From assembly GCA_963693095.2 (NCBI GenBank), contig OY843768.1:192001-256000 (forward strand): a DNA stretch of 64,000 nt. The letters run 5' to 3'. A program made the position numbers and the translations under genes. Shown one piece after another: positions 3,018 through 63,275 of the stretch. This stretch comes from Cenarchaeum sp. Lineage in GTDB: Archaea; Thermoproteota; Nitrososphaeria; Nitrososphaerales; Nitrosopumilaceae. Under the pieces are notes generated by a model. That model was given only the letters and a program-made list of their open reading frames with translations. It made no database searches and had not been told where the DNA came from. Within the stretch, counting starts at the first letter, position 1; each line of letters opens with the position of its first letter.

Positions 3018-3071
3018 GTATGGGAGCCGACACCACTGCCCATTCGGTCAAATGGGCATTGATCCTGCCGG
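3018..3071 (+). mobile_element. Partial copy of IS66-derived MITE (left part)
   Basis: gtatgggagccgacaccactgcccattcggtcaaatgggcattgatcctgccgg; 3037-3071 matches the reverse complement of 1013-1047 at 31/35 nt. Confidence 0.75.
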
Positions 3072-3137
3072 TGCGCTGGCATTATCATCGGCCACGCCCA
3101 CAACAATTTATATCATTTTTGTCGCGCACGGCCAGCC

Positions 3138-5146: not shown

Positions 5147-6300
5147 TCTACCTCGACAATGCCGCATCGACGCCGATCCACGAGATCGTCCTTGAGGCGA
5201 TGATGCCGCACCTGAGCGCCGGCTATGGCAACCCGTCATCGATCCACCGCAGCGGGCGCGATGCGGCACGCGCAATCACTGCGGCGCGCGCACAGGTCGC
5301 GGCCCTCATTGGCGCCGCACCGCACGAGATCATATTCACGTCGGGCGGGACCGAGTCCAACAACATGGCGATACTCGGCCTCGCGCGCGCGCAGCCGAAC
5401 TCGCATGTGATAACGACGCAGATCGAGCACGAGGCGGTTCTTGAGCCGTGCGCGCTCCTCGAGTCAGAGGGCCACGATGTCACGCGCGTGCGTGCCGGCC
5501 ATGACGGGATCGTCGATCCGGCCGACGTTGCGTCTGCGATGACTGACAGGACATCGCTCGTGTCAGTCATGACGGCCAACAACGAGGTCGGCACGGTTCA
5601 GGACATTGCATCGATCGCCTCTGAGTGCGCGCGTCGCGGCGTGCCCCTCCACACCGACGCGGTCCAGGCAGTCGGCAAGATGCCAGTCAATGTCGTGGCG
5701 CTAGGCGTCTCGCTCCTCTCGCTCTCTTCGCACAAGATCAACGGCCCAAAGGGCGCTGGCGCCCTCTATGTGCGCGATGGCCTGCGCCCGTCGCCGATCG
5801 TGCGCGGCGGAGGACAGGAACGCGGCGTGCGCTCTGGAACCGAGAACGTCGCGGCGATCGTCGGCCTGGGGGCGGCGTGCGCGCTCGCCTCGGCACAGAT
5901 GGCCGATGACGCCACGCGCGTGGCTGCTATGCGCGACGCGCTAGTCGCCGGCGTCAGGGCGCGAATACCGCACTCGTCGCTCAACGGCGATGCCGCAAGG
6001 CGCCTGCCGGGCAACGCGCACTTTGCGTTCCTTGGCATCCAGGGCGAGGACCTGATAATAAAGCTCGACGAGTGCGGCGTCGCAGCATCGACTGGCTCGG
6101 CGTGCTCGATACACACGCAAAAAGAGTCGCACGTCCTGCGCGCGATGGGCATGGGCAAGGAGGCAATCGACGGCTCGCTGCGAATGACTGTCGGCCCGCA
6201 GAACACGCAGGCCGAGATCGACTCGGCCATAGGCGCACTCGAGTCATGCGTCGCGGATCTTCGGCGTGTCTCGCCGTTTAGGCAAAAGTACGGGTTTTAG
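5143..6300 (+). CDS. iscS: Cysteine desulfurase (IscS/NifS group I)
   Basis: YLDNAAST, TSGGTES, HTDAVQ, SSHKINGPKG, STGSACS. Confidence 0.93.
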   Translation: MIYLDNAASTPIHEIVLEAMMPHLSAGYGNPSSIHRSGRDAARAITAARAQVAALIGAAPHEIIFTSGGTESNNMAILGLARAQPNSHVITTQIEHEAVLEPCALLESEGHDVTRVRAGHDGIVDPADVASAMTDRTSLVSVMTANNEVGTVQDIASIASECARRGVPLHTDAVQAVGKMPVNVVALGVSLLSLSSHKINGPKGAGALYVRDGLRPSPIVRGGGQERGVRSGTENVAAIVGLGAACALASAQMADDATRVAAMRDALVAGVRARIPHSSLNGDAARRLPGNAHFAFLGIQGEDLIIKLDECGVAASTGSACSIHTQKESHVLRAMGMGKEAIDGSLRMTVGPQNTQAEIDSAIGALESCVADLRRVSPFRQKYGF

Positions 6301-7121
6301 GCCCGCGCAAAGCGCGCCGAGGCGACAGTTGCTGCCGCAATGGAGACTGCGAGCACGACCATGACCACGGCGCCGAACTCGGGTATCACGCACGTTCCGA
6401 CGACCTCTATTCTCCGCTCGCCCTCAAAAAAGCCCACGCTAAACGTGTTGGCCGACTCGCCGCGCTCGACGGTGTATCCGGCCGGCTCGTCGACCTGCCT
6501 GCCGTCAACTAGGACGATAAAGCCCTCGTCGCTGCCCTCGCATCCGGACGACCTTGCGTCAAAGTATGACCTGCTAGCCGTGAACGATATGTTCCCGTCA
6601 GAGACGGGGTTGACATAGACTGTGAGGCCCAGTGCCTCGCGGCTGATCGCCATGTCCGTGACAGTCCCGCCGGATATCGTGTACGCTATGCTGCCCTCCT
6701 CGCCGTCGCCAATGTCGACTGTGGATGTGCCCTCGACGGTCTCCGGACCGACCTCGACTGGCTCGAGGCTCAGCTCAAATGACTGCCGTGCCGTGACGCC
6801 CTCCTTGTACGATGCCTGGACGCTGTACTGACCCTCCTCCCAGACGTCGCCGTCGGTGTTGATTATTGTCGCAAACGACCCGTCGCGCGAGACGTCGAGC
6901 TGGTCGACTGCTATGACGTTGCTGCCCCACTTTACCTGGAGCGTTACGGGTATGTCCCCCACGCGCGGCTCGACGTTGCCTGATATGACGATCTTGTCCC
7001 CACGCTCATAGACGGCATCGAGCTCGACTACGGTGATGGTCTGGGCCGCTGCAGGAACGGCCATCGAGAGGGCCGCGATTGAGACAATGATTGCGAGATT
7101 TCTCACGCTGGCCATGGCCAT
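6297..7121 (-). CDS. PEFG-CTERM surface protein
   Basis: Signal peptide; C-terminal VIPEFG + TM helix + basic tail. Confidence 0.88.
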   Translation of the reverse strand: MAMASVRNLAIIVSIAALSMAVPAAAQTITVVELDAVYERGDKIVISGNVEPRVGDIPVTLQVKWGSNVIAVDQLDVSRDGSFATIINTDGDVWEEGQYSVQASYKEGVTARQSFELSLEPVEVGPETVEGTSTVDIGDGEEGSIAYTISGGTVTDMAISREALGLTVYVNPVSDGNISFTASRSYFDARSSGCEGSDEGFIVLVDGRQVDEPAGYTVERGESANTFSVGFFEGERRIEVVGTCVIPEFGAVVMVVLAVSIAAATVASARFARA

Positions 7122-7133
7122 GCGCGCAACGTC

Positions 7134-8000
7134 CTAGTATTTTGGCATTATGCCGATGCGGCCCCTGCTTGAGGCCACAACCACGGCGATCACTGCCAAA
7201 ACAAGAACCATCGCGGTGAGGGCGCCAAACTCGGGCACGACACACGCGCCGATGATCTCCACGCTGCTCGCGCCCGCAAAGAGGCTTACTGTGAGGCTGT
7301 CGCCGACCAGGCTGATGTCATCCCACTCTTGGCCGTCGACTAGGACGATATAGTTCGTGTCGCCACACGCCATCTTGTTGGGGAATATCGTCAGTGCGCC
7401 GGGCTCTGTTGCGTCAACGTTGAGTAGGAGTGCCGTTCCGCCGCCCTCGCCGGCATACATTGCCGACGCGCCAGTCACGCTTCCGCCGCTCATCGTGTAC
7501 TGCACACAGTCCGCGCCCACGCTGAGCTCGCCGGCGGCGCACTCTTGTGACATTCTCTCGGGCTCCATCATCTGCTCGTCCCTGACGGGGTTTGTTATCC
7601 CGCTGCCGGTGAGGTCGACATGAACCTTGTTGCTTGCGCCCTGGCCGACGCCATACTGGACCTTTATCGTGTAGCGGCCGTCATAGTTCCACAGGTTGCC
7701 CCCCGTGTTGATCGTCGTTGCGTACGTGTTCGTTGCGGGGTCGACGTCTAGCTGCTGGAGGTTGACGCGGTTTCCCTGCGGGCTGATGACGATTAGCGTG
7801 ACGGGCGTTCCGGGCTTGTATGTCTTTACTCCACCATTGACCTCTATGGTCGAGCTGTGGCTGTACTCTTGGGCATCGGTGTGAACGGTGATTGGTATGA
7901 TGACTGGCTCGAGGATGCCGCTCTGGGCCTGGACGGGGTGCGCGCCGATGAGCGAGGCGGCCGCCACTGCCATGAAGATATATGCGACTCTGCGATCCAT
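7134..8000 (-). CDS. PEFG-CTERM surface protein
   Basis: Likely start MDRRVAY (8000); signal peptide; C-terminal VVPEFG + TM helix. Confidence 0.88.
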   Translation of the reverse strand: MDRRVAYIFMAVAAASLIGAHPVQAQSGILEPVIIPITVHTDAQEYSHSSTIEVNGGVKTYKPGTPVTLIVISPQGNRVNLQQLDVDPATNTYATTINTGGNLWNYDGRYTIKVQYGVGQGASNKVHVDLTGSGITNPVRDEQMMEPERMSQECAAGELSVGADCVQYTMSGGSVTGASAMYAGEGGGTALLLNVDATEPGALTIFPNKMACGDTNYIVLVDGQEWDDISLVGDSLTVSLFAGASSVEIIGACVVPEFGALTAMVLVLAVIAVVVASSRGRIGIMPKY

Positions 8001-8138
8001 CAGGGCAAGCGCCCACCTATGGCTATTTATGTATATTTGATTGGCGTGGGCAGCCCACGCGGGGACTAGCCTTGCGGGCTCACGCACAGCCTCCCCTGCG
8101 CCAAAGGGCGCCAGTCAGGCTAAAAAGTTAGAGTGTGG

Positions 8139-8714
8139 TCAGATTACCTGCCACGGGCGCGTTGCGAACGTTATCACATAGCCCACGCCGATGATTATCG
8201 ACTGGTATGCGATGTTCGTGTACGGTATGGCCTTTATGATGTGCTCGCCGTCTACTATGACGGTCTGCCCCGGCCCGAGCCCCGGACCCACGCTGGCCAC
8301 GTTGAGCTGCGTGTGTACGTGGTATGCGCCTGGCTCGAGTGCCATTGCGCATATCTGGTACGGCAGTATCTCGTTGCCTCCTAGGTCAAAGACGTTGCCA
8401 GGAGGATCCCTTGAGAGGATCTCCCACCTGTTTCCAGCGTTCGTCGACTCTGCGAATATGGATATCCAGCCACGCAGGTCCCTCTCCACGAGGCTGACGA
8501 GCTCGCCGCTAAGGCACAGTGTCTCGCCAGTCGTGAGGGACTGCCTGGTGAACTCCTCGTTGTCTATCTCCACAAAGCGGCTCTGGAGCTGCGCCTGCAC
8601 GCCATGCGCGTCTGCGGATGGCAGGACAAACTCAACCCAGTCAAAGCCGACAGTGCCGAGCGCTAGTATTGCGCCTAGCCCGAAGACGATTGCCTTGTTG
8701 CTGTTTGCGTTCAC
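8139..8714 (-). CDS. amoB: Archaeal ammonia monooxygenase subunit B
   Basis: Signature AHGVQAQLQSRF, YHVHTQLN, TFATRPWQVI; GTG start at 8714 downstream of a TATA-like box. Confidence 0.95.
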   Translation of the reverse strand: MNANSNKAIVFGLGAILALGTVGFDWVEFVLPSADAHGVQAQLQSRFVEIDNEEFTRQSLTTGETLCLSGELVSLVERDLRGWISIFAESTNAGNRWEILSRDPPGNVFDLGGNEILPYQICAMALEPGAYHVHTQLNVASVGPGLGPGQTVIVDGEHIIKAIPYTNIAYQSIIIGVGYVITFATRPWQVI

Positions 8715-8770
8715 GGTGCCCCGCGGCCATCGGGGCGCGTTATATAGTTTTCCGGCTCCAGGGCCGCCCC

Positions 8771-9280
8771 TCACGCCTGAGATGCCCCCTTCCTGGCTCC
8801 CTGATCGCAGTCCTCAGGGGCCCAGCGCCTCGTTTGGGCGCCAAACCGGTACCTGAGGGGGCCCCAGACCCGTCGGCCGGCGAGGTGGTGCGGCATCGTC
8901 TCGACGACATTGTCGATCTTTTCGAGCGAGTTGTCAAAGAGGCCCCTGTCAGCCGAGTCGACGACAAAGGAGACGGCCGGCTCGCCGCCAAAGTCGAGGT
9001 TGACTATGAGCGAGCCGGCACCGCCGCCGCGCCTCCTCTTCATCTCCCTGAGGAGGGCCTTGAGCCTCTCCCACCTCTTGAACCCAAACCACGCAAAGAA
9101 CTCGTCGCCAAACTCGACGGGAAGCGCGATGCGCATACGGCTCGTCTCATCGTCGGCCGGCCCGTCGAGCTCGGACTCGGAGAGCTCAAAGACTGCGCCC
9201 AGGCACTCGTGGGCGACTTCGACCTCCCAGGGCGAGATGCCGTAAAACTCGACGATTGCAGTAAGGCTGCCGCCTGCCAT
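8771..9280 (-). CDS. Hypothetical protein
   Basis: Gene-like ORF (FYGISPWEVEV...) co-oriented between korB and amoB; start taken at ATG 9280. Confidence 0.7.
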   Translation of the reverse strand: MAGGSLTAIVEFYGISPWEVEVAHECLGAVFELSESELDGPADDETSRMRIALPVEFGDEFFAWFGFKRWERLKALLREMKRRRGGGAGSLIVNLDFGGEPAVSFVVDSADRGLFDNSLEKIDNVVETMPHHLAGRRVWGPLRYRFGAQTRRWAPEDCDQGARKGASQA

Positions 9281-33600: not shown

Positions 33601-33993
33601 ATGCGCCAGAACCGAAAGGCAGTCGCCCTTGAGAGGATGCGCACGCTCGTGGCCAATGCCTCGGCAAACCTGCGCGCCGAGCCTGCCCTGGCCGAGCGCC
33701 AGGCGGCCCTCGCATGGAGGATATGCACGCACACGCGGACGCGCATGCCATACGAGCTTCGCATGGCGTTCTGCCGTAAGTGCAAGAGCTTTGTGGGGTA
33801 TGGCCGGCACGTGCGCATACGCGTCGGCAACGGCGAGGTTCGCCTGACCTGCGGCCTCTGCGGGCACGTGCGCCGCAAGGTGCTGCCTAGAGTCAGCACC
33901 ACTGGTTCTGCCTGCTCAAATGGGCGCGATTCCGCCGATCCATCTGGCACAGGGGCACCAGACGGGACAGCGGGCCTGCCGCGCCCTGGATAG
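33601..33993 (+). CDS. rnp4: Ribonuclease P protein component 4 (Rpp21) with MITE-derived C-terminal extension
   Basis: ALERMRTL, FCRKC, LTCGLCGHVRR; last ~35 codons lie in MITE-like DNA. Confidence 0.88.
   Translation: MRQNRKAVALERMRTLVANASANLRAEPALAERQAALAWRICTHTRTRMPYELRMAFCRKCKSFVGYGRHVRIRVGNGEVRLTCGLCGHVRRKVLPRVSTTGSACSNGRDSADPSGTGAPDGTAGLPRPG
33888..33950 (+). mobile_element. Degenerate IS66-derived MITE copy at the 3' end of rpp21
   Basis: agtcagcacc...ctcaaatgggcgcgattccgccgatccat matches ggtcagcacc...gtcaaataggcgcgatcctaccgatccat at 45245-45297. Confidence 0.7.
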
Positions 33994-34432: not shown

Positions 34433-34516
34433 GACACACCGGCGAGTATGCGCGAGATATATTACCGATTGGGCGGATCCCGCGCGTGAGACCAGCATCC
34501 CACTGCCCACTTGTTC

Positions 34517-35625
34517 TATACTCACGAGCTAAAGTTCGTGTGACCTTCCACGACCTTCCTGTTCAGGTATGCGTAGATGTTCAGGTTGAACCGCTTGGTC
34601 CTGAGGTACTCGCCGACCGCGATCCTCAGCTCGTCCAGGGTTCGTGGTTGCCCCGGGACCCTGACGTCCCTCTTGAGTATGCGCCACGTCCCCTCGATGG
34701 CGCTTAGCTGCGGGGATCCCACCGGCAGCTCGATGAGCTTGATCTCGCCGTTGGCGCGCAGCAGGTTCTTGACCGCCCCCGCGCGGTGCTGGGGAGCCCT
34801 GTCGACGATGACGGCGATCTTGCCGAACTTCCCGTGCAGCTCCGCAAGGTACTGCGCGAACGTGTCCGCGTTGAACTTGTCGCGCGTCCGGAACGCCTGC
34901 CGCCCGTCCTCGGCGATCGCCCCGTACACGACGATCCGCTCGTGGCTCCCGGTGTACGGCTCGTAGACGGGCACCGTGCGCGGCGTCCAGTGCGTCGCCA
35001 TGCCCCCGGCGTCGTTCACGATGATCGACTCGTCCTGCACCAGCATCGTGTATCCCGCGCGCGCCAGGCGTGGCGCCGCCCCCGCAAGGCGCCGCTGCCA
35101 GCTGCGGACGGCGGACGCGCTCGCCCTGTTGACGTGGGCCTTTCGCGGCCTCTTGCGCGAGAGGCCGAACTCGCGCATGAGCCTCCTCACGCTGGCTATG
35201 TGGAACAGTGTCCCCGCCGCCCCGGCGATCCTGTCGCGGACCGCGGCCGGGGTCGTGGGGGATCCCGACGCGTCGGCGAGGATCCCGTCGAGCGCCGTTC
35301 GCGGCACGGCCAGCGGCCTCCCGGAGCGCGGGAGGTCGCGGAGGGCGGGAAGCCCGCCCTCCCGGTACCGCGCAACCCACTTGCCGACCCACCCCGGGCA
35401 CCGCATCAGCGTGTCCGCCGTGTCCTCGTGCGTCATGCCCATGTTGACCACGCAGTGCACGGCGAGCATCCTGTCCCTCACGTGCCCGCTCTTCTCGCTG
35501 TGGTGCGCGTCCCTCAGCTCCTCCCGCTTCCGGTCGTCCATGCCCTGGCGCGGGAGGGGGCGATCAATATAGCTGCGGGGTCGGGGAAACTTGATCATCT
35601 ATACGAACTTTAGCTCGTGAGTATA
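34517..35625 (-). mobile_element. Complete IS630-family insertion sequence
   Basis: 23-bp perfect inverted repeats TATACTCACGAGCTAAAGTTCGT (34517-34539 / 35603-35625) including the TA target. Confidence 0.93.
34522..35598 (-). CDS. IS630-family transposase (single ORF, DDE intact)
   Basis: HTH (W..RYREGG..L.D.PRSGRP), QDES, VDRAPQH, SPQLSAIE. Confidence 0.93.
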   Translation of the reverse strand: MIKFPRPRSYIDRPLPRQGMDDRKREELRDAHHSEKSGHVRDRMLAVHCVVNMGMTHEDTADTLMRCPGWVGKWVARYREGGLPALRDLPRSGRPLAVPRTALDGILADASGSPTTPAAVRDRIAGAAGTLFHIASVRRLMREFGLSRKRPRKAHVNRASASAVRSWQRRLAGAAPRLARAGYTMLVQDESIIVNDAGGMATHWTPRTVPVYEPYTGSHERIVVYGAIAEDGRQAFRTRDKFNADTFAQYLAELHGKFGKIAVIVDRAPQHRAGAVKNLLRANGEIKLIELPVGSPQLSAIEGTWRILKRDVRVPGQPRTLDELRIAVGEYLRTKRFNLNIYAYLNRKVVEGHTNFSS

Positions 35626-35922
35626 GGTGCGATCCTGCCGGTCTGCACCTGCCGAGTCGGCGCCTGTCTGGGCATGAGCGAGCCGTGGTGTTGAGCTCGT
35701 ACAGGGCACTGCCTGGCGTTGTTTCATAACCACGCTTAGGCGCCATCCGGCAGGCTCCGCGGCTCCGCTCCGCGCACGGCGCGCGGCTGCCACTACCGAA
35801 ACACAAATGGATCGGATCGCGCGGCTGCAACGCGTTGGCGAGCGACCGGAACGCAAAATACGTTGACAGGGATCGGGCGCAAGTAGCGGCTGAGCAACCG
35901 TGGCGAGTGGCTGCGGGACAAC

Positions 35923-36084
35923 GGCTACGGCCGGAGGTCGTCGGCAGAGACGGCGTTCTCCACGATCAAGCTGGTGTTCCGCGACCACGTGATGGCGCGG
36001 AACTGGGGCCAGGTGGTTCGCGAGCTGGTCTTCATGGCGTACGCGTACAACCGGCTGATCGACATGGCGGGCGATCCGTGGTGA
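35923..36084 (+). pseudogene. IS5-family transposase C-terminal remnant
   Basis: GYGRRSSAETAFSTIKLVFRDHVMARNW..VRELV..YAYNRL matches the IS5 Y-(2)-R-(3)-E-(6)-K signature. Confidence 0.82.
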
Positions 36085-36220
36085 GCCGCGGGAAGCGCGG
36101 CCTGTGGCGCCATGCGTGGCGCTCGTGGTCACTGGCTGTGAAACAACGTCCACCGGCGGCGCTCTTTATATGATGCCGAGCTGACAGTCGTGCGTGAGAT
36201 CTGCGATTGGGCTGCAGCAC

Positions 36221-38185
36221 ATGGCTAGGCTTGTGCCGGCCTTGGCCGCCGTGGCGGCCGCAATCGCCATGGCCGCCGCGCCTGCGGCGCTGGCGCAGCC
36301 CGGCGGCGCGCCGGGACTCGAGGCGCTCGTCGCCTGCGAGCCCAGGGGCACGCTCGTGGCGTTTATGGCGTCTAGCGAGCCCTACAGGATCGCCCTTCGC
36401 TCCGCCGGCGCCGCGGACGGCGAGGTGTCGTTCTCGCTCCGCGTGCTCCGGGTCGCGCACTGGACGGCGCAGGACGGCGACACGGGCGGCTCGCGGGTTG
36501 CCCTGGACGACCACGGGGCCGGCATGGCCACGGTCACCGTGGACAGGTCCGCCGCCGGCGAGCGCCTCGTGGAGATCACCGCGTCCGGCGCGCGCGGCGA
36601 GTCGCGGGCCGTGCACCTGCTGCGCATACTGCCCGCCTCCACGGCGGATCGGGACGCTGGCGCGCACAACTCCGAGCCCGAGCTCGAGGTGCTCCTCGGC
36701 GGCGTGCCGGTGCGGCGCGTGGACCTCGCCGAGTCGCCGGGGATCGCGTGCGTGGAGCTGAGGGCGCCGGACGCCGAGGGCGACGCGGTGGCCTTTTCGC
36801 TCAGGGTTCGGGAGACTGTGCCACTGGATCCCCTGGCAGGGGCGGGCATGCCGCCGGTGCTGGTAGACCACGGCGACGGGACGGCGACGGTCATGGTGGA
36901 CAGGTCTGCCGCCGGCGAGCGCCTCGTGGAGATCGCCGCCTCGGACATGCGCGGCGAGGGGTGGGACGCGTACGCGCTGGGCATGCTGTCCGCCGATGCC
37001 GGCGTCCGCCTCCTCCCGCGCGAGCAGCCCGTGCCCCAGTGGGACGCGTACGAGCTGCGCGTGCTCCCCGCCGATGCGGGCAGCCGGCCGCATGGCCACG
37101 CCGGCGGCCTCCCGCACGCCGTGGAGGGCAGGTCCACCGCCGGCGCCCCGCTGCCGCCGCGCCTCGTGGCCCAGGCGCACCGGCAGATGTGCCCGGACAC
37201 GCCGCACACGGCGGACACGTGGGGCGTGGACAGCCATCACCACAAGGACGTGCACAGGCTTGACTGGTCGGTGCGCCCCGCCATGTCCGGCGTGCCGCCG
37301 ATAGAGGGCACGTCAAAACAGAATGCCGGAATTTTTTACACTGATGGCAGAAACCCCTTTGACATCGGGGAGCGGAATTGGTGGGCGTGTCATACGCGAG
37401 CGTCGTTCGGGACTCAGGTGCCCCAGTGGGTAGTCCTGTGCGACGTGCCGGGCGATGACAGGACGCATTACTATATCCGAAATGACGCACCATCGGATTC
37501 GCCTCGTTCTCCAAAGTTGATAAACCCATACACGGGAAACATTGCGGATTTTGATAATAGCCCGCCCCGCACATATGCCGCAGCCCAGGAGCCACAATGG
37601 GTCAAATATAATAAAGATGATGTGCCCAAAAAGTCTGACATCTACAGGCAAATTCGCCCTGACGCGTACGTTCCTCCCAACCAACTGTTTGTAAAATCAG
37701 GGAATCATGCCATCTCCATTCACGCCTGGGTCGACGGCACATACTCCTCGGTGCCGGAGCTCCTCCCGTTCTCGGACAGGGTGGTGTTCCGGGCGACCGC
37801 ATTCCATGCGGATGACGTGACGTTCCACATAGTGGCGCTCAAGAGCATTCTCGGCGCGCCGGAGGGGAGGTCGCACGCGCTGGTAAACGGCATCCCGGCA
37901 CCGCTGAATACCGAGTCGATATGGCGATCCCCCGACGATGCGGAGATCCACGTTCCTGTCAGGGTGTCTGACATTGCGAAGGGCAACGGCATCTACATCA
38001 GGGGAATCAACGACGACGAGCGCACGGGTGACGGGGTGGTCAGGGATCTCCACGAGATAGAGCTCGTGGCCGAGATACCAGTCGTTGTGCCCGACAAGCA
38101 CAGGTATGAACCCATAGACCCAGCCTTTGCCATCGAGCCGTGGGGCTGCTGGCCGCTCCTCAACGGCACGGCCTGGGTCCCCTAG
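36221..38185 (+). CDS. Secreted protein with duplicated Ig/cadherin-like repeats (transposon cargo)
   Basis: Signal peptide MARLVPALAAVAAAIAMAAAPAALA; repeated DHG.G.ATV.VDRSAAGERLVEI; TTTATAT box upstream. Confidence 0.75.
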   Translation: MARLVPALAAVAAAIAMAAAPAALAQPGGAPGLEALVACEPRGTLVAFMASSEPYRIALRSAGAADGEVSFSLRVLRVAHWTAQDGDTGGSRVALDDHGAGMATVTVDRSAAGERLVEITASGARGESRAVHLLRILPASTADRDAGAHNSEPELEVLLGGVPVRRVDLAESPGIACVELRAPDAEGDAVAFSLRVRETVPLDPLAGAGMPPVLVDHGDGTATVMVDRSAAGERLVEIAASDMRGEGWDAYALGMLSADAGVRLLPREQPVPQWDAYELRVLPADAGSRPHGHAGGLPHAVEGRSTAGAPLPPRLVAQAHRQMCPDTPHTADTWGVDSHHHKDVHRLDWSVRPAMSGVPPIEGTSKQNAGIFYTDGRNPFDIGERNWWACHTRASFGTQVPQWVVLCDVPGDDRTHYYIRNDAPSDSPRSPKLINPYTGNIADFDNSPPRTYAAAQEPQWVKYNKDDVPKKSDIYRQIRPDAYVPPNQLFVKSGNHAISIHAWVDGTYSSVPELLPFSDRVVFRATAFHADDVTFHIVALKSILGAPEGRSHALVNGIPAPLNTESIWRSPDDAEIHVPVRVSDIAKGNGIYIRGINDDERTGDGVVRDLHEIELVAEIPVVVPDKHRYEPIDPAFAIEPWGCWPLLNGTAWVP

Positions 38186-38308
38186 GCCCCGGGGTGACGG
38201 GCATGCACGCGGCTCCGGTGCGCACCGGTTTGGATCGCACGATCACCGGTTATGAAACAACGCCCACTGCCTCATTGATTTATAACCCGCCGCGCGCGCG
38301 CAGCCCCG

Positions 38309-38767
38309 TTGGCAAAGGCGTATGACGTTCCGGCAGACAGGCTTATCGCACGCCTCGCCTCTGACCTGAGGGCAGAGGGCGTGAGCGCGCCAAAGTGGAC
38401 ACCGTTCGTAAAGACCGGAGTTCACGCCGACAGGCCGCCGCACGAGCGCGACTGGTGGCACACGCGCTGCGCCTCGCTCCTTCGCAAGATATACCTCAAC
38501 GGCCCGATAGGCGTGGGCAGGCTCTGCGCAAAGTATGGCGGCGCGTCTCGCTCCTCGCACGGCTATGGCTCGGCGTACCACCGTGACGCCAGCGGTGCGA
38601 TCATACGCGGCGCGATCCATGCCCTCGAGTCCCTCGGGTACGTCGAGCGCCACTCGACTGGCGGGCGCATAATATCTAGCGCGGGGATGAAAAAGATCGA
38701 CGGCGTCGCCACGGAGATCCTCAAGGAGATGGCAGTCGACGAGCCGACCCTAGGGCTGTACAGATAG
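38309..38767 (+). CDS. rps19e: 30S ribosomal protein S19e
   Basis: PKWTPFVKTG, DWWHTRCASLLRKIY, SGAIIR. Confidence 0.95.
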   Translation: MAKAYDVPADRLIARLASDLRAEGVSAPKWTPFVKTGVHADRPPHERDWWHTRCASLLRKIYLNGPIGVGRLCAKYGGASRSSHGYGSAYHRDASGAIIRGAIHALESLGYVERHSTGGRIISSAGMKKIDGVATEILKEMAVDEPTLGLYR

Positions 38768-45188: not shown

Positions 45189-45238
45189 GGGCGCGCGCGC
45201 GACCCTGCTGCGATAAAACGGTTTGTGGGGGCGCCCCG

Positions 45239-45566
45239 GTATGGGGTCAGCACCCCTCGGCTCATTTGGTCAAATAGGCGCGATCCTACCGATCCATTTG
45301 CCGCGGGGGGCGTGGCCAGGCTCCGCCGCACCGCGCCGCAGATGTTCGCGTTCTGCGAGCACGCCGGCGTCGCGCCCACGAACAACGCCGCCGAGAGGGA
45401 GCTGCGCGACGTGGTTGTGCGCCGCAAGGTGAGCGGCCAGCTCAAGGGGGGCGCGCCGGCTGCCAGGCGCATGTCTATCCTCCTGACGTGCTTCCTGACG
45501 TGGAGGGCCATTGGGAAGAGTGTGGTGGCCGAGGTCATGCGTGCGGTCTAGGTGCTGACCTCATAC
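45239..45566 (+). mobile_element. Internally deleted IS66 (ISBst12-like) with transposase C-terminal stub
   Basis: TIR GTATG(G/A)GGTCAGCACC at both ends; PTNNAAERELRDVVVRRKVSG is the IS66 transposase signature; stop codon abuts the right TIR. Confidence 0.88.
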
Positions 45567-46537: not shown

Positions 46538-46650
46538 CTATGAGGTCAGCACCCTCCTGCTCATTTGGCCAAATAGGCGTGATCCTGTCGATCTACGTGC
46601 CGCTTCGGCACCTGTCTAGGCATGAACGGGCAGAGGTGCTGACCTCATAC
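46538..46650 (+). mobile_element. Intact ~113-bp IS66-derived MITE
   Basis: TATGAGGTCAGCACC...GGTGCTGACCTCATA perfect 15-bp TIR; left interior matches 45239-45300. Confidence 0.9.
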
Positions 46651-46831
46651 GGCGCCCTGCAGTCGCGTGTGGGCTCACCGGCCGGTGGGGTCACGCCATC
46701 AGGCGATTCGAACCACGTGGCCTTGCAGGGCTGTCTCGGGGCACGAGGGGAACCCTTGGGGAGTCTAGGGCACATGTTAGACTGCCGATGAGCACAATCG
46801 GTTTATAATCACGCAATGCGCGCGCACGCCC

Positions 46832-47827: not shown

Positions 47828-48627
47828 TGGGGGGCACTAGTGCGCTCATGCCGCATATCGTCCATGACACGTATACGGTGTTCTGGCGCGAGCTAAAGCG
47901 GTACCGCAAGTCGCGCAGCGGCATACTCATCAGGATGATTCAGCCGGCGATATGGATCATCGTTATCGGCAACACGTTTGCCGGCACGCAGCCGCTCATC
48001 GAGTCAGTCGGCTTTGACGGCAAGTACATCGACTTTATGGCACCGGGCGTCATAATCCTCACTGCCATATTCACGAGCATCTTTGGCGGCGTCAACACGC
48101 TCTGGGACCGACGCTATGGGTTTATGGCCAAGACGATAACGTCGCCGATCTCGCGCTCGGCCATAGCGCTCGGCAAGATGGGCGCCATATCGCTCGTCGC
48201 CGCAATGCAGGCCGGCATCATACTTGCGATCGCCCTCCTCATCGGCGTTGACATGGACCTCTTTGCGGTAATGCCAATCATGGCCATAGTCATCCTCTTT
48301 TCACTGGGCTTTTCGGGCATATCGGTGAGCGTCGCGGCCCTGGCAAAGTCGCAAGAGACGTTCTGGGGACTCATCAACTTTTTGGGAATGCCGCTCTTTA
48401 TGCTCAGCCCAGCGCTCTTTCCGCTCGAGCTCCTCCCCGACTGGCTTGCTGCCGCAGCCAGCGTGAATCCCGTGACGTATGCGATACTCATCGTGCGCGG
48501 CCTCATGTCCGGCACGCTCGATGCGGCCACGGCGATCCTTGCCATGGGCGTCATCTCGGCCTTTGTCGCCATCATGGTCGGCGTGACGACGTACGTCTTT
48601 ATGCGCGAGGTCAGCAGGCCGTTCTAG
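47827..48627 (+). CDS. ABC-2 type permease
   Basis: 6 TM helices; DRRYGF; NPVTY. Confidence 0.9.
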   Translation: MGGTSALMPHIVHDTYTVFWRELKRYRKSRSGILIRMIQPAIWIIVIGNTFAGTQPLIESVGFDGKYIDFMAPGVIILTAIFTSIFGGVNTLWDRRYGFMAKTITSPISRSAIALGKMGAISLVAAMQAGIILAIALLIGVDMDLFAVMPIMAIVILFSLGFSGISVSVAALAKSQETFWGLINFLGMPLFMLSPALFPLELLPDWLAAAASVNPVTYAILIVRGLMSGTLDAATAILAMGVISAFVAIMVGVTTYVFMREVSRPF

Positions 48628-48731
48628 TGGCCGGCGCGTGCCGGCACCGCCACTCCGAGTTGGTCAATTTGACCCAATCGGCAACAAATAATGACGCACG
48701 TGCCCATTTTTGGCCTCCGAGACCCACGCCT

Positions 48732-51700
48732 ATGGGAGCCCCCACACTCGCAGCAGTGGCACTCGTCGCCCTCGCGGCGCTATACGCGGTGCCTGCGGCA
48801 GCCGAGGGGCCGGCCCACGAGTTCATCACGTCATGGGGCTCCCTTGGGGCCTCCGGCGAGGGCAGGTTTAGCGGCCCGACGGGCATCGCCTCTGACCACG
48901 AGGGCAGCGTCTATGTGACTGACACGGGCAACGGCCGCATCCAAAAGTTCAACAACTCGGGGGGCTTTGTGGCCGAGTGGAGCGCCATGGGCAACTCGAC
49001 AGAGTCACTCTCCTCGCCCATGGGCATTGCGGTTCTCGACAACAGGGTCTATGTCATTGACAGCATTCTCGAGTCAGTCGTCGTGTACGACCTTGATGGC
49101 GCCTATGTCTCGACATGGGGATCGCACGGGGGCGATGCGGGTGAGTTTTTGCAGCCGCGCGGGATAGCCGCCGGAGGCGGAAAGGTCTATGTTGCTGACA
49201 CGGGCAACTCGCGTGTCCAGGCGTTTAGCGCAGCGGGGGATCACATATCCACGTTTGGCACGGACAGGGACGAGGCGGCACACCTCCGGTCACCGGTGGG
49301 CATTGCAGTCGCCAATGACGCAAGCGTGTTTATCGTTGATCCGGGCAAGATGTCACTCTTTCACTATGGCGTTGACGGGGAGCTACTCGATGTCTTTGAC
49401 GGCACGGTGGCCGGCAAGTCATTGCGCGCCAGGGGCATGACAGTCGACTCTGATGGCAAGCTCTATGTGGCCGATGCCCGAAACGACCGCGTTCTGCGCC
49501 TCGAGCCTGGCGGCCTGACGCTCTCGGCATGGGGGGATGCCGGTGCAGGCGCGTACAAGTACCTGATGCCGACTGATGTCACCGTTGACATATACGGGCA
49601 GCTCTTTGTCGTGGACTCGGGCGGGCACTCGATAAAGAAATACTCCACACCGCTTGCGCTAGATGACTCTGAGCGCATCGCCGCGCACGAGGAGGCCGCC
49701 AGGCAGTTTAGGGTATCACAGGGCCTAGAGGAGCCCGAGCAGGCCGCCGAGCCCGCACAAGAGCCGGCGCCACCGGCGGCTCGACCCGCGCCACCGCCGG
49801 CGCAGCCGCCAGCACAGCCCGCACCGACGGCGCCAGTCGCGCGCTCTGCCCCGCCGGCGACGCCACAGGCAGCGCAGCCTGCCCCCGTCGCGACGGCGCA
49901 GCCGCAGGTTCAGCAGCAGCCCATGGCCACGGCCCAGCCCGCGCGCGTCGTGGCAGTGCCCGGCGACCTCACAAAGCCGACGATATACGCCCCGCATGAC
50001 ATCACGGCCGAGGCCTCCGGCCCGCTCACGAGGATAAACGTCGGAATGGCCACTGCGAGCGACGAGAGCGGCATACGCTCGATCACGAGCAACGCGCCCT
50101 CCGAGTTCTCGCTGGGCACGAGCCTGGTGATCTGGACGGCCATAGACGGTGCGGGCAACCTGGCAATCGCAAGGCAGGAGGTCACCGTCTCGGACACGAC
50201 GCCGCCGGTCATGGCAGGCGTGGCTGACATCTCCGTTGAGGCCGTCAGCCCTGACCGCAACTATATCGAGATTCGCGCCCCCGTTGCCACCGACGCAGTC
50301 GGCGTGCTCGACGTCTCCTCTGATGCGCCAGACCACTATCCGGTCGGGCAGACGACGATCACGTGGACGGCCCGCGACATCTCGGGCAACACGGCATCAG
50401 CCGCGCAGGTCGTGAGCGTCCTGGACACGTCGGCCCCGCAGATCGTCGCGCCGCCAGAGATCACCGCCGAGGCGACAAGCCTGGATGCGACAGCGGTCTT
50501 TCTGGGTGACGCAAGCGTGGTCGACAATGGCCGCATAGTCTCAGTCACGAATGACGCGCCACCGTCATTTGCGCTTGGCAACACGACTGTCATGTGGACC
50601 GCGACTGACTCGTCGGGAAACCGCTCGCATGATGCGCAGGCTGTGACCATAGTCGACACGACACCGCCGGAGATCATCGTTCGCGAGGGAACCGTGGTGG
50701 AGGCCGAGTCAGCCGACTCTAACACCGTGGACCTCGAGGAGCCTGAGGTCAGCGATGTCCAGCGCGTGAGGCTCACAAGCGACGCGCCAGACACATTTGC
50801 CCTCGGCGAGACGACAGTCACGTGGACGGCGACGGACCCCTCGGGCAACACGTCGACTTCTGCACAGCTAGTCACGGTGGCTGACACGACACCGCCGACC
50901 ATCGACATCACGCGCACAATCACCGCTGAGGCCAGCAGGTCTGAGGGCAACACCGTCAGCCTCGGCGAGGTTGCAGTCACTGACGTGAGCGAGATTGCGG
51001 GACTTGCCAATGACGCGCCCGAGTCATACGCGCTAGGCGAGACGACAGTCACGTGGAACGCCACGGACATACACGGCAACACGGCCACAGCAGAACAGAC
51101 AGTGATCCTAGTCGACACGGTCTCCCCGTCGATCTTTGCGCCAGCTGACGTGACGGCCGAGTATGCCGGCGAGGCCGGAAACAGCGTAAACGTCGGCAGT
51201 CCGGTCGCCGCAGACCGCGTGGGCGTCGCCTCGGTGTCAAGCGACGCGCCAGACACATTTGCCCTCGGCGAGACGACAGTCACGTGGACCGCGACGGACA
51301 CGTCAGGCAACGAGTCGACTGCATTGCAGACAATCACAATAGTGGACACGCTGGCCCCTGCCATACGCCCGCCGCCAGACGTGAGCGCCGAGGCCACTGC
51401 AGAGTCCGGCACGGCCGTTGAGGTGGGCCGGGCCACTGCCGCAGACGAGTCCGGCGAGGTCACAGTCACAAGCGACGCGCCTGCGCTCTTTGGGCTCGGA
51501 ACCACGACAGTCACGTGGACGGCGACTGACACGTCAGGCAACACGATGAACGCGACGCAGAGGGTGAGCGTGACTGACACGATCGCCCCAGAGATAAGCG
51601 CACCTGCGGACATACGTGCAGAGGCTGACTCGGAGGACGCAAACACCGTGGATCTCGGCACGGCCCGCGCAACTGACGCCGCAGGCGGCGTCACGGTGAC

Positions 51701-53768
51701 AAGCGACGCGCCACCGGCGTTCCCCGTGGGCACCACGACAGTCACGTGGACCGCGACTGACTCGTCAGGAAACGAGTCCATTGGCACGCAAGAGATCACG
51801 TTTGTGGACACGACGAAACCGACAGTTTACGCGCCCGGTGACATTACGGCCGAGGCCGGTCCGGACGTGCGCCTTGACATAGGCGAGGCCACGGCCACTG
51901 ACGCCGTGGGCGTGGATGCGATAACGAGTGACGCGCCAGGCTCGTTTGGGCCCGGCGAGACGACAGTCACGTGGACCGCGACGGATGCGGCGGGAAACTC
52001 GGCGAGCGCAACGCACACTGTGACGATAATTGACACGACGCAGCCGCTCATCGTGCCGCCGCTGGCGCGCACCATTGAGGCGATCTCTGAGGACGGCAGT
52101 GCCGCAGACATTGGGTGGCCAACGCACTCTGATGCGGGCGGCGGCGTCACGATCGAGGGCAACGCGCCTGCAATGTTTCCCATCGGCGTGACTGTGGTGA
52201 CGTGGACTGCAACAGATGCGGCAGGCAACTTGCGCTCGGCCACGCAGAGCGTGACTGTCTCGGACACGATCGCCCCGTCAGTCACCCCGCCTGCTGACAT
52301 TACCGCCGAGGCGAGCTCGCGCAACTCGACTGCAGTCGAGATCGGCGAGGCCACGGCCACTGATGCCGTGGGCGTGGTTGCGATAACGAGCGACGCGCCG
52401 GAGGCCTTTGCGCTCGGCGAGACGACAGTCGCGTGGACCGCGACGGATGCGGCAGGAAACTCTGCTAGCGGCCTTCAGATTGTCACCATAGTCGACACGA
52501 CCCCGCCGAGCCTCTCGGCGCCTGCCGACGTGACTGCCGAGGCCTCCTCCTCGGGCACGACTAGCGTGGATATCGGCGCGCCCGAGTCCACTGACACGGT
52601 CTCTGAGGAGATTGTAATCACCAGTGACGCGCCAGACGGCTATGGCCTCGGCGAGACGACAGTCACGTGGACCGCGACGGATGCGGCAGGCAACTCTGCC
52701 TCGCATGAGCAGCTTGTGACGGTGGAGGACACGACCCCGCCGACAGTTGTGCCGCCGGCTGACATTGTGGCCGAGGCCGAGTCATCAGGCGGCGCAGTCG
52801 TGAACGTTGGGATTGCCGGAACGGAGGACTCTGTTGGCACGATCTCACTCACAAGTGATGAGCCGGCACTCTTTCCAATCGGCGAGACGACAGTCACGTG
52901 GACCGCGACGGATGCGGCAGGCAACGAGGGAACCGCAGAACAGCTCGTGACTGTCACTGACACCGTTGCGCCGCGCATCGTCTCACCGATTGACATTGTT
53001 GCCGAGTCCACATCGACGAACGGCACGCGCATTGCCCTGGGTGACGCATCCACGTCTGATGACGTTGGCGTGACGTCCGTGTCCAATGACGCGCCCGAGC
53101 TCTTTGGGCTGGGCAGGACGATGGTCACGTGGGAGGCAGTGGACGAGGCAGGCAACATTGCCGTCGCGCTCCAGTCCGTGACCCTCCGCGACACTGTCGC
53201 CCCGCAGATTGAGACTCCTTCAGGCATGACACTCAACGCAACGGCGCCGTTCACGTCAGTCACGCTATCCATACCCATCTTGTCTGACGCGGTGGACACC
53301 TCGCCTGTCCTGGTCTCTGATGCGCCTGACTCGTTTGCGCTCGGAACGACCATGGTGACCTGGAACGCAACAGACGCGGCCGGCAACACATCAAGCGTCG
53401 TCCAGCCAGTCACAATCCTTGCGTGCGGCACTGCGCACTCGACGTACAACGTGATACGCGGCACGGCCGGCGATGACTCGCTAGTCGGCACCAGCGCCGC
53501 TGACCTGATCTTTGCGCTAGCGGGCAACGACGTCATTAGCGCCGGCGGTGGCAATGACTGCGTGATCGCCGGCGACGGTGATGACGTTGTCATCGGCGGC
53601 GACGGTGAGGACATCCTTGGCGGCAACGCCGGCGATGACGTTGTGCGCGGCCAGGACGGCGATGACCTGCTTGACGGCGGCGAGGGCTCTGATGTCATCG
53701 ACGGCGGCGACGGCTCTGACTCGTGCGTGGCCTCTGCAGGCGACTCTGTCCTCCGCTGCGAGGCGTAG
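48732..53768 (+). CDS. Large surface adhesin: NHL beta-propeller + Pro/Ala/Gln linker + 15 HYR-like repeats + RTX-type Ca-binding repeats
   Basis: F.GP.GIA..G.VYV.DTGN.RIQ.F NHL repeats; 15x DT..P...SDAP..F..G.T.V.W.A.D..GN; C-terminal GGxGxD nonapeptides. Confidence 0.9.
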   Translation: MGAPTLAAVALVALAALYAVPAAAEGPAHEFITSWGSLGASGEGRFSGPTGIASDHEGSVYVTDTGNGRIQKFNNSGGFVAEWSAMGNSTESLSSPMGIAVLDNRVYVIDSILESVVVYDLDGAYVSTWGSHGGDAGEFLQPRGIAAGGGKVYVADTGNSRVQAFSAAGDHISTFGTDRDEAAHLRSPVGIAVANDASVFIVDPGKMSLFHYGVDGELLDVFDGTVAGKSLRARGMTVDSDGKLYVADARNDRVLRLEPGGLTLSAWGDAGAGAYKYLMPTDVTVDIYGQLFVVDSGGHSIKKYSTPLALDDSERIAAHEEAARQFRVSQGLEEPEQAAEPAQEPAPPAARPAPPPAQPPAQPAPTAPVARSAPPATPQAAQPAPVATAQPQVQQQPMATAQPARVVAVPGDLTKPTIYAPHDITAEASGPLTRINVGMATASDESGIRSITSNAPSEFSLGTSLVIWTAIDGAGNLAIARQEVTVSDTTPPVMAGVADISVEAVSPDRNYIEIRAPVATDAVGVLDVSSDAPDHYPVGQTTITWTARDISGNTASAAQVVSVLDTSAPQIVAPPEITAEATSLDATAVFLGDASVVDNGRIVSVTNDAPPSFALGNTTVMWTATDSSGNRSHDAQAVTIVDTTPPEIIVREGTVVEAESADSNTVDLEEPEVSDVQRVRLTSDAPDTFALGETTVTWTATDPSGNTSTSAQLVTVADTTPPTIDITRTITAEASRSEGNTVSLGEVAVTDVSEIAGLANDAPESYALGETTVTWNATDIHGNTATAEQTVILVDTVSPSIFAPADVTAEYAGEAGNSVNVGSPVAADRVGVASVSSDAPDTFALGETTVTWTATDTSGNESTALQTITIVDTLAPAIRPPPDVSAEATAESGTAVEVGRATAADESGEVTVTSDAPALFGLGTTTVTWTATDTSGNTMNATQRVSVTDTIAPEISAPADIRAEADSEDANTVDLGTARATDAAGGVTVTSDAPPAFPVGTTTVTWTATDSSGNESIGTQEITFVDTTKPTVYAPGDITAEAGPDVRLDIGEATATDAVGVDAITSDAPGSFGPGETTVTWTATDAAGNSASATHTVTIIDTTQPLIVPPLARTIEAISEDGSAADIGWPTHSDAGGGVTIEGNAPAMFPIGVTVVTWTATDAAGNLRSATQSVTVSDTIAPSVTPPADITAEASSRNSTAVEIGEATATDAVGVVAITSDAPEAFALGETTVAWTATDAAGNSASGLQIVTIVDTTPPSLSAPADVTAEASSSGTTSVDIGAPESTDTVSEEIVITSDAPDGYGLGETTVTWTATDAAGNSASHEQLVTVEDTTPPTVVPPADIVAEAESSGGAVVNVGIAGTEDSVGTISLTSDEPALFPIGETTVTWTATDAAGNEGTAEQLVTVTDTVAPRIVSPIDIVAESTSTNGTRIALGDASTSDDVGVTSVSNDAPELFGLGRTMVTWEAVDEAGNIAVALQSVTLRDTVAPQIETPSGMTLNATAPFTSVTLSIPILSDAVDTSPVLVSDAPDSFALGTTMVTWNATDAAGNTSSVVQPVTILACGTAHSTYNVIRGTAGDDSLVGTSAADLIFALAGNDVISAGGGNDCVIAGDGDDVVIGGDGEDILGGNAGDDVVRGQDGDDLLDGGEGSDVIDGGDGSDSCVASAGDSVLRCEA

Positions 53769-61789: not shown

Positions 61790-62332
61790 ATGCGCCAAAC
61801 TTTAAAACAGAAGTTAGAGTCTGTTTGGCCAATGGCCAAGCAGGTTACCTTTCCTGATCCCGTGCTCGCTGACAACCAAAAGACCGTGGAACTTCTCATA
61901 AAGAGTGCAAACGGAGACATGGCAAGGATTAGTGAAATCAACGAATGGGGAGTGGCACGCCAAAACAGGATCGACATGCTGTGCCGCTTTGCCGGACTCT
62001 TGGAGAAACATGGCATCATTGGAGGAGACGGCAAGATGAGCAAGATCATGACAGACTTTGTCACAACCCAATGCTTTGCGATTGCCACGCGGCATGGACT
62101 TGATGGCATGGAATACGAGTTCAACGACAGCGAGTCCGGCCCCCTCTCCTCGGATCTCAACATCGACCTCCAGGCCGTCGAGCCAACGCCGGTGGTGTCG
62201 CCCACAGGGCTGTTTGATGCCCCCGAGAACGAGCTGCGATTTCTCGATGCCGTCAGGGGCAAGAATGTTCACGAGCTTGGCGGGATGGCTAGACTGTGCG
62301 TTATAGATGAGAGATACCGCATATACGCATAG
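61790..62332 (+). CDS. Hypothetical protein, YwgA/Panacea-like motif
   Basis: FAIA..HG...YEF...SGPLSSDL..DL resembles the Y.F....GP.S..L..D pattern; AT-richer DNA. Confidence 0.6.
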   Translation: MRQTLKQKLESVWPMAKQVTFPDPVLADNQKTVELLIKSANGDMARISEINEWGVARQNRIDMLCRFAGLLEKHGIIGGDGKMSKIMTDFVTTQCFAIATRHGLDGMEYEFNDSESGPLSSDLNIDLQAVEPTPVVSPTGLFDAPENELRFLDAVRGKNVHELGGMARLCVIDERYRIYA

Positions 62333-62617: not shown

Positions 62618-63136
62618 GACGAGCTGCCGATTGGTGCTGTAGTGTGTGTTACGCCCCCGGGAACAGTTCTTAATCCTTTTTTCCGCGTCCTCAAAGGGAT
62701 CATACTTTTTCTTTCTCGTCCAATACATCGGCTCGGTGATATCCCAGTCCTTGATCATCCTAGTGGCCCACTCGGCATCTGTCTCCTTTCCGTCCTTGTA
62801 TGGCACGACCTCCCTTGCGCGACGGCTCATTTGAGCATTATGCGAATTTTGGCTCTGTTTCACAACCCGGTTCCAGACGCGCCGCCCTAGCGCCTTTATC
62901 GGCAATCTGTACTTTCTTGACGTGTCGTTTGTGCTCAGTTGCCTATCCTGTTTTTGGCCACCCTCATGACCAGATCTCAACCTTTCTTCCTCTTCCTCGA
63001 AAGGATCGCGCTTTTTCTTTCTCGTCCAATACATCGGCTCGGTGATATCCCAGTCCTTGATCATCCTGGTGGCCCATTCCTCCTTTGTCTCCTTTCCGTC
63101 CTTGTCTGGCACGACCCCTATTACGCGACGGCTCAT
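62492..63136 (-). CDS. Hypothetical protein formed from a 306-bp tandem duplication
   Basis: MSRR..VVP.KDGKET..EWATRMIKDWDITEPMYWTRKKK.DPFE occurs twice (ATGs at 63136 and 62830). Confidence 0.55.
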   Translation of the reverse strand: MSRRVIGVVPDKDGKETKEEWATRMIKDWDITEPMYWTRKKKRDPFEEEEERLRSGHEGGQKQDRQLSTNDTSRKYRLPIKALGRRVWNRVVKQSQNSHNAQMSRRAREVVPYKDGKETDAEWATRMIKDWDITEPMYWTRKKKYDPFEDAEKRIKNCSRGRNTHYSTNRQLVSGRAGDCWHREIVLVLKRIVLPARPAQVLKVLHALRVERLA

Positions 63137-63164
63137 TTAGGCATTATGCAAATTTTGACGCACA

Positions 63165-63275
63165 GGGCAGGCATTCCCGACCCGCCCTTGCTAGTGCGGG
63201 CGTTGTCTAGGTGTGGGTAGTTCGGCAGGATCGCGCCTATTTGACCAAGTGGGCAGAGCGGTGATAACCGCATAC
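63165..63275 (-). mobile_element. Degenerate IS66-derived MITE copy
   Basis: Reverse complement begins gtatgcggttatcaccgctctgcccacttggtcaaataggcgcgatcctgccg; distal boundary uncertain. Confidence 0.78.

Follow-up and report, generated by a model that had tools for sequence, protein, structure and literature searches.

A probable non-autonomous IS5-family cassette carrying a gene for a putative secreted protein in a Cenarchaeum genome

A 64-kb window of a Cenarchaeum genome (by window we mean the whole stretch of 64,000 nucleotides analysed, taken from contig OY843768.1) holds a unit of 2550 bp (35715–38264) that is framed by perfect inverted ends and by a target-site duplication. We read this unit, with a probability of about 0.78, as a non-autonomous cassette derived from an insertion sequence (IS) of the IS5 family, for which the names mobile insertion cassette (MIC) and decayed compound transposon serve equally well. 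From left to right it is made up of an internally deleted IS copy, a segment of captured DNA with a single gene (the cargo), and a lone IS right end (Table 1). An earlier reading of this DNA, made from the sequence alone, had proposed a transposase-less IS5-type transposon here, which moved recently as a whole and disseminates a surface-protein gene.

The boundaries described in that sequence-only reading were recovered in full: the 17-bp terminal inverted repeats are perfect, and CACTGCCT directly abuts both outer tips as an exact 8-bp duplication. An exact 8-bp match at both tips has a chance probability of only about 1 in 65,000. Allowing ≤3 mismatches, the 17-mer end was matched four times in the window against 0.07 expected, a count reached in 0 of 100 shuffles. 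Homology extends inward from the left tip, where the first 33 nt agree at 31 positions with the left end of each of two IS fragments, L022 and L030, in another Cenarchaeum metagenome-assembled genome (MAG). The combination of a perfect 17-mer inverted pair less than 3 kb apart, an abutting 8-bp direct repeat and an IS5 remnant inside cannot reasonably be ascribed to chance.

The duplication is confined to the outer ends. Past the inner, degenerate right end, the eight bases at 36151–36158 read CACCGGCG and not CACTGCCT. We therefore conclude that all 2550 bp moved together in the latest transposition, so that the earlier claim of movement as a single unit is well supported. Its timing is another matter, for the word "recently" depends on eight duplicated bases, which have almost no dating power. 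Because the unit encodes no transposase, the enzyme would have had to come in trans. The two octamers are alike at 5 of 8 positions; this may be chance (roughly 5%), or it may be the trace of a target preference left by an earlier insertion of the deletion derivative that now forms the left module.

That left module is, judged by its matches to the MAG, an internal-deletion derivative of an IS5-family element, without approximately residues 13–293 of a 365-aa transposase. Window positions 35715–35871 align with L022, which carries a left end and the transposase N-terminus, at 80% DNA identity, and positions 35860–36148 align with a third MAG fragment, L026, which carries the transposase C-terminus and a right end, at 90% over 289 nt. 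Since this second alignment runs through the right end of the L026 fragment, the inner right repeat (IRR') is a genuine right end, as had been proposed; it matches the canonical end at 14/17 positions, and the three differences are all transitions. An intact element would measure about 1.28 kb.

Two pieces of transposase coding sequence remain in the module. The N-terminal piece is weak when taken alone (50% identity to residues 1–22 of P0008, a full-length relative; tblastn, E 0.68), but it is anchored by its DNA match to L022, the continuation of which encodes P0008 residues 1–213 (64%, E 1e-71). The C-terminal piece matches NCBIfam NF033579 over positions 235–287 of 289 (E 4.8e-12) and Pfam DDE_Tnp_1 (E 0.0026). 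By tblastn, window positions 35848–36078 align with P0008 residues 288–364 at 78% identity, the remnant proper beginning at the deletion junction, near residue 293. It is out of frame with the N-terminal piece and is interrupted by an in-frame TAG at 35884–35886. Thus the remnant IS5 transposase of the sequence-only reading stands, now refined to 12 plus about 73 out-of-frame codons. A Y-(2)-R-(3)-E-(6)-K pattern can be read in the C-terminal piece. At the junction, ACGTTGACAGGGA is a short imperfect repeat that the intact IS has in its N-terminal as well as its C-terminal coding part, and the deletion probably formed through this 13-nt microhomology.

The right boundary is much shorter. Its 35 nt match the L026 right end at 30 positions (27/30 over the terminal 30 nt), and the terminal 17–20 nt are identical. 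Further inward no similarity to the IS 3' region rose above chance, the observed score being reached by 145 of 2000 shuffles. Since similarity stops at about 35 nt, this boundary is a solo right end and not a second IS copy. The inner and outer right ends, IRR' and IRR, lie in the same orientation and have 24 of 35 terminal bases in common.

Table 1. Features of the cassette and copies of the neighbouring palindromic repeat (window coordinates)
Feature	Position	Strand	Remarks
Left target-site duplication copy, 8 bp, CACTGCCT	35707–35714	.	Direct sequence reading; identical to 38265–38272
IRL, left terminal inverted repeat, GGCGTTGTTTCATAACC	35715–35731	+	0 mismatches
Left module, internally deleted IS5-family element, 436 bp	35715–36150	+	DNA matches to L022 and L026; lacks its own target duplication
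Transposase N-terminal remnant, 12 codons, TTG start	35835–35870	+	tblastn; DNA match to L022
Putative deletion junction, ACGTTGACAGGGA	35860–35872	.	Overlap of L022-type and L026-type similarities
Transposase C-terminal remnant, about 73 codons	35863–36084	+	NF033579, tblastn; natural stop 36082–36084
IRR', inner degenerate right inverted repeat, 14/17	36134–36150	-	Mismatches at positions 2, 13 and 15 from the tip
Captured DNA, 2.08 kb	36151–38229	.	Between inner and outer right ends
TATA-like box, CTTTATAT	36164–36171	+	Sequence reading; inside the captured DNA, about 50 nt ahead of the ATG of the cargo
Cargo gene, 654 aa	36221–38185	+	Signal-peptide-like N-terminus, two Ig-like repeats, conserved beta-rich C-terminal region
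Outer right end, solo IS right end, about 35 nt	38230–38264	-	Match to L026 right end
IRR, right terminal inverted repeat	38248–38264	-	0 mismatches; exact reverse complement of IRL
Right target-site duplication copy, 8 bp, CACTGCCT	38265–38272	.	Direct sequence reading
Predicted empty site, GTACAGGG-CACTGCCT-CATTGATTTATAA			Single CACTGCCT
Palindromic repeat of about 115 nt, full copy	46539–46651		
Palindromic repeat of about 115 nt, partial copies	1012–1050 (-), 3034–3072, 33881–33950, 45235–45304, 63222–63275 (-)		

We searched for the ends elsewhere by scanning 596 billion bases of genome contigs with the 17-mer, which returned 35 loci. Three of these (L022, L026 and L030) are on a single Cenarchaeum sp. 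MAG, OY843584.1 (1,644,826 bp), where about 2e-4 were expected. The remaining 32 were single matches in unrelated bacteria, compared with about 70 expected by chance on our own estimate; none of the 32 encodes a relative of the transposase, and one alone has a second end-like site, on the same strand. The 17-mer is, on this distribution, family-specific. All three MAG loci are broken copies: L022 has the left end and transposase residues 1–213 followed by unrelated DNA, L026 has residues 285–359 and the right end, and L030 has the left end with about 56 nt. A 4-mismatch end-like site in L022 (9758–9774) is without a matching duplication and was put down to chance. Directly beyond the IS fragment of L026 we noted a lower-GC block (5099–8853), with genes for a 326-aa protein, a 253-aa PAPS-reductase-like protein and a 536-aa helicase-like protein, as read from translations only; the block may represent a defence-type island with IS debris at its border.

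Full-length relatives of the transposase remnant were found in P0008 (365 aa), P0009 (384 aa) and P0010 (314 aa), which are 86–90% identical to it. P0008 and P0009 match NF033579 at E 5e-33 and 1e-33 (115–117 bits, below the curated cut-off of 140) and match PF01609 above cut-off. The element thus has a DDE transposase of the PF01609 or NCBIfam IS5 type, preserved as a remnant only, together with the short terminal inverted repeats (17/17) and fixed-length duplication (8 bp) of the IS5 family. The sequence-only reading had likened the repeats to IS903-group ends, an assignment that we could not confirm. IS903 makes a 9-bp duplication, against 8 bp here, and P0008 found no match at E ≤ 1e-5 among 72,556 plasmid records (tblastn); IS903 subgroup membership is therefore not supported. 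The archaeal ISH1 subgroup of IS5 has an 8-bp duplication.

In a set of 5.8 billion proteins, a word-based search with P0008 gave a transposase family of seven. One of these, a 223-aa fragment, is encoded on the Cenarchaeum MAG, and one relative is recorded from a Cenarchaeum that lives in symbiosis with a glass sponge. A phmmer search of PDB sequences with P0036, a more distant relative, gave 0 matches. In P0008, P0009 and P0010 the catalytic domain contains an inserted pentapeptide low-complexity array (GNADA or GNADG; about 6, 10 and 12 repeats), which is unusual for an IS5-family transposase. The array is absent, judging by their shorter lengths, from P0036 and P0037 (47–48% identical; 323 and 332 aa). 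The IS lineage would seem to be limited to Cenarchaeum-like genomes and, in the two that were seen, to be mostly decayed. Because the family looks decayed in these genomes, the cassette is probably immobile now.

The cargo open reading frame (ORF) codes for 654 aa if translation starts at the ATG at 36221 and for 663 aa if it starts at a GTG at 36194, in keeping with the protein of about 655 aa with a signal peptide that had been described before. Its sole strongly hydrophobic stretch is residues 1–25, which are followed by ALA-Q; from sequence, we take this N-terminus to be a putative signal peptide. The gene would be expressed from a promoter of its own. No Pfam or NCBIfam family matched the protein. 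Its family in the 5.8-billion-protein set numbers seven including itself, and because the six homologues cover it at 95–97% (48–66% identity), the cargo is a real, intact gene. Three of the seven proteins are encoded on the 1.64-Mb Cenarchaeum MAG, and on the contig of the window genome only the window's own was found. None of the MAG ends flanks a cargo paralogue, and the three paralogues of that genome accordingly resemble ordinary chromosomal genes.

A profile search with the cargo among 1.84 billion representative proteins yielded 27 matches at E ≤ 1e-3, 16 at ≤ 1e-10 and seven at ≤ 1e-30. Pfam was scanned with 17 of the 27, the other ten being two family members and eight short fragments. 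The N-terminal repeat region of the cargo (profile positions 150–270) recurs at the C-termini of proteins that have NHL repeats or a subtilase plus P-domain, and also of proteins with weak Big_9, Invasin_D3 or cadherin-like matches. AlphaFold2 modelled two beta-sandwich repeats at residues 32–137 and 156–242, in a whole-protein model that was poor (pLDDT 47.2). The C-terminal 355 aa, modelled separately, gave a beta-rich domain (pLDDT 64.8, pTM 0.70), with the last 160 residues at about 80–90. A Foldseek comparison of this C-terminal model to the PDB gave 0 matches at E ≤ 0.001; its best TM score was 0.17, and the hits were all generic beta-sandwiches. Look-alikes of the cargo in the ESM Atlas scored 0.81, which is chance level.

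The two Ig-like domains correspond at the DNA level to an internal repeat (36503–36637 and 36860–36994; 357-nt spacing, 80% identity). A 78-nt tandem duplication (36961–37008 and 37039–37086) is private to the window copy, adding 25 residues that are absent from all six homologues. The N-terminal half of the gene has a GC content of 0.76, which drops to 0.52 at 37291–37720. We read the cargo as a probable secreted protein with Ig-like repeats, restricted to Cenarchaeum-like archaea. As for the surface protein of the sequence-only reading, the signal peptide and the Ig-like repeats speak for it, but the cargo has no further membrane-spanning stretch beyond the N-terminus that could serve as an anchor.

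We propose that an intact copy of the same IS would have supplied transposase in trans, and that this transposase would have acted on the left end together with the intact right end further away, bypassing the crippled IRR'. The whole segment would then have inserted between a palindromic repeat and the TATA-like box in front of the gene for ribosomal protein S19e, duplicating 8 bp. Cleavage in related IS requires the bases at the tip, as work on IS903 reportedly showed. The substitution at position 2 of IRR' would explain the use of the distal end, and hence the capture of the gene that lies between the two right ends. Such an arrangement could have arisen from two IS copies flanking the gene, followed by deletions, or from a deletion derivative that came to lie beside the gene with a stray right end downstream.

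Several observations weigh against this interpretation. Neither the cassette nor its ends, left module or cargo occurs a second time in the 64-kb window, and all three perfect ends in the MAG are on broken IS pieces, with no cargo paralogue within 5 kb of any. These same results leave the earlier statement that the unit disseminates its gene without support; the check proposed there, for cargo paralogues in other repeat pairs, gave 0 of 3 ends in the related MAG. A search for an intact transposase with the same ends had also been proposed; none of the seven transposase-family proteins from the word-based search, nor any of the three proteins found with the remnant, is encoded on the 1,976,240-bp contig of the window genome. 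The 17-mer scan speaks only for the contigs that it covered, since neither the window's own two ends nor any other locus from its genome was among the 35, and the copy number in that genome lies outside its scope. No empty or donor site was seen, the three Cenarchaeum loci being without homologues of the window's neighbouring genes. The cargo has a GC content at third codon positions (GC3) of 0.82, within the range of neighbouring host genes, and so its composition does not hint at import. A tree of the cargo family with 11 rows leaves four of eight inner branches open and is silent on orthology or transfer. Finally, the two-step origin from a deletion derivative and a solo end is a reconstruction and not an observation.

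Other histories for the locus differ mainly in whether the cargo ever transposed. A small deletion derivative might have inserted first and made the CACTGCCT duplication, the cargo and the inner right end being added later by recombination or gene conversion. The two similarly oriented right ends are possible substrates for such an exchange, and there is no other cassette copy to prove that the unit is mobile. This history, however, needs an extra donor in which the cargo had right-end sequence on both sides, as well as a double exchange placed precisely in the roughly 35 nt of homology available on the right, where the interiors of the two right ends are no more alike than chance would make them (observed score reached by 493 of 2000 shuffles). 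A single transposition of the outer pair accounts for everything in one step, and we regard the recombination history as quite improbable. More improbable still is a resident cargo that was joined independently by a deletion derivative on its upstream side and a solo end on its downstream side, the 8-bp match being a coincidence, or a resident cargo around which a compound structure arose in place and stayed there. An IS630 element and a palindromic repeat within 1.2 kb mark the locus as an insertion hotspot, and the cargo is host-like in composition, both of which suit a resident gene. We give this history very little credence in view of the exact octamer match at the two outer tips, the lack of such a duplication at the inner end, and the position of the cargo between an intact S19e promoter region and the upstream repeat, as insertion predicts.

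The sequence-only reading in its full form would go further than the one preferred here, with a unit active to this day, an intact partner IS with the same ends at another place in the 1.98-Mb genome, a cassette in several copies and a gene that spreads. Perfect ends and a perfect duplication would be expected of such a unit, and intact relatives of the transposase do exist in related metagenome contigs (P0008 and P0009, 86–87% identical to the remnant). Set against these are the absence of all seven transposase-family proteins from the window genome's contig, a cargo protein cluster made up of a single member sequence, and a relative's genome with broken copies only; we think it unlikely that the unit is still active. 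The boldest version would make this the first record of a DDE transposon with a passenger gene from ammonia-oxidising archaea (Thaumarchaeota/Nitrososphaerota), in which debris cassettes of a Cenarchaeum-specific IS5 lineage, mobilised in trans now or recently, shuttle genes for secreted Ig-like proteins, as candidate host-interaction factors, between loci and genomes of sponge symbionts. We consider that version doubtful, and retain the more limited one of a non-autonomous cassette that was last moved as a whole.

The window is archaeal, with 62% GC, and encodes ribosomal protein S19e (38309–38767), F420-0:gamma-glutamyl ligase, the Rpp21 subunit of RNase P, tRNA-Gly and tRNA-Glu; Rfam matched the two tRNAs only. 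The target-site duplication begins 5–6 nt past the terminal stem of a palindromic repeat of about 115 nt, and ends 7 nt before the TATA-like TTTATAA (38279–38285) that precedes the S19e gene. Immediately upstream is an apparently intact IS630-family element (34516–35626) with inverted arms of 24 nt at 100% identity (34516–34539 and 35603–35626), or alternatively with repeats of 21 nt and a TA on each side. Its transposase (358 aa, minus strand, 34522–35598) matches NF033545 at E 1.6e-42, above cut-off, and Pfam DDE_3, and its GC3 of 0.92 is higher than that of the surrounding genes. This element sits inside the palindromic repeat, one copy of which is split into 34487–34515 and 35627–35701. 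With the IS630 element in the repeat and the cassette beside it, there have been three separate insertions in one intergenic space.

The palindromic repeat has 14-nt terminal inverted repeats, an internal palindrome CATTTGG.CAAATGG and a predicted fold energy of -56 kcal/mol. About seven full or partial copies are spread over the 64 kb, all of them intergenic or at gene ends. A copy conserved at about 83% was found in the related MAG (L026 4496–4612), there too beside an IS5 remnant. A likeness to the repeat that we had noticed by eye in the flank of L030 did not hold (alignment score 17). Rfam gave no match to this repeat, which could be a miniature inverted-repeat transposable element (MITE), a structured RNA or a regulatory element.

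A few further features of the window deserve mention. The fourth match to the 17-mer, at 62851–62867 with three mismatches, has neither a partner nor an IS-like flank, and we took it to be chance or an old solo end. It is situated at the junction of two tandem copies of a small minus-strand ORF (62675–63157), which are 88% identical, 306 nt apart and without a Pfam match; a low-GC stretch with a further unannotated ORF (61790–62332) lies just upstream of the pair. At 48627–53768 on the plus strand, after an ABC-2 transporter pair, is a gene for a 1713-aa protein with NHL repeats, at least eight HYR domains from 12–14 tandem 231-nt repeats, and RTX calcium-binding repeats, which is of the eukaryotic-like or adhesion type reported for sponge symbionts.

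The kind of element described here is known, if seldom recorded from archaea; its occurrence in this host lineage is, as far as our searches show, new. A 2019 survey of the thaumarchaeal mobilome describes IS of one or two genes, puts composite transposons that carry passenger genes into the group of elements "not detected in archaea, including thaumarchaea", records 0 IS in Cenarchaeum symbiosum A, places IS630 in one thaumarchaeal species only, and does not use the words MITE, non-autonomous or cargo (PMC6563490). Our literature search, the range of which did not take in Filée et al. 2007, a paper possibly relevant to archaeal MICs, gave no thaumarchaeal case of a MIC in archaea or of an archaeal composite transposon with passenger genes. 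Sponge-associated Thaumarchaeota have been described as enriched in transposases and as carrying eukaryotic-like proteins (PMC7848895). A cassette with a putative secreted Ig-like protein would be a concrete link between these two traits in sponge symbionts. On our reading, the locus would display, base by base, how a defective IS and a stray IS end can package and move an ordinary chromosomal gene, in a lineage for which such elements are essentially undescribed. Cassettes of this type are invisible to IS annotation that is based on transposases.

Among known classes, the unit does not fit the MITE. The 436-bp left module alone is a MITE-like internal deletion derivative, yet MITEs are shorter than about 0.6 kb, non-coding and have their own duplication, whereas the unit has 2550 bp and is coding, and the left module, with a 14/17 match between its ends, is without a duplication of its own. 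Transporter IS (tIS) are IS copies that bear passenger genes and have kept the transposase (PMC3129680, PMC7986276). The unit resembles a tIS in that an IS framework carries a gene unrelated to transposition; unlike a tIS, it has no transposase.

Two further classes resemble it in part. Units of the ISEcp1 type have an intact IS that provides transposase in cis and uses a poor look-alike as its distal end. Here, as there, the IS's own right end was bypassed for a more distal one, adjacent host DNA was captured and the duplication brackets the larger unit, but the IS is gutted, and it is the proximal end that is poor (14/17) and the distal end that is perfect, so that the unit is not a member of that class. 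Compound transposons are exemplified by the kanamycin transposon flanked by IS903. With them the unit has in common a passenger between two ends of one IS, movement by the outer ends and a fixed-length duplication. It departs from them in having no complete flanking IS (436 bp remain on the left and about 35 nt on the right) and no transposase, and in its 8-bp duplication.

A MIC, by its published definition, has two inverted repeats, no transposase gene, at least one coding sequence and a length of about 0.7–3 kb, and is mobilised in trans (PMC6199540; PMC3129680). The prototype is MIC231 of Bacillus cereus, which belongs to IS231 of the IS4 family. Our unit has the two IS-type inverted repeats, lacks a transposase gene, and has one passenger coding sequence and a flanking duplication. 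Its 2550 bp fall within the published range of 0.7–3 kb (PMC6199540). As in a MIC, IS-derived sequence is kept next to the left end, and a cognate transposase would be expected to act in trans. The further MIC feature of demonstrated transposition, or of several copies with different duplications, is not seen in the one copy in the window, and no copy is present at the three MAG loci. Unlike MIC231, the unit derives from the IS5 and not the IS4 family and resides in an archaeal host. It also differs from a MIC in its extra internal degenerate right end and its transposase remnants, which give it the look of a decayed compound structure rather than of a clean replacement of the transposase gene.

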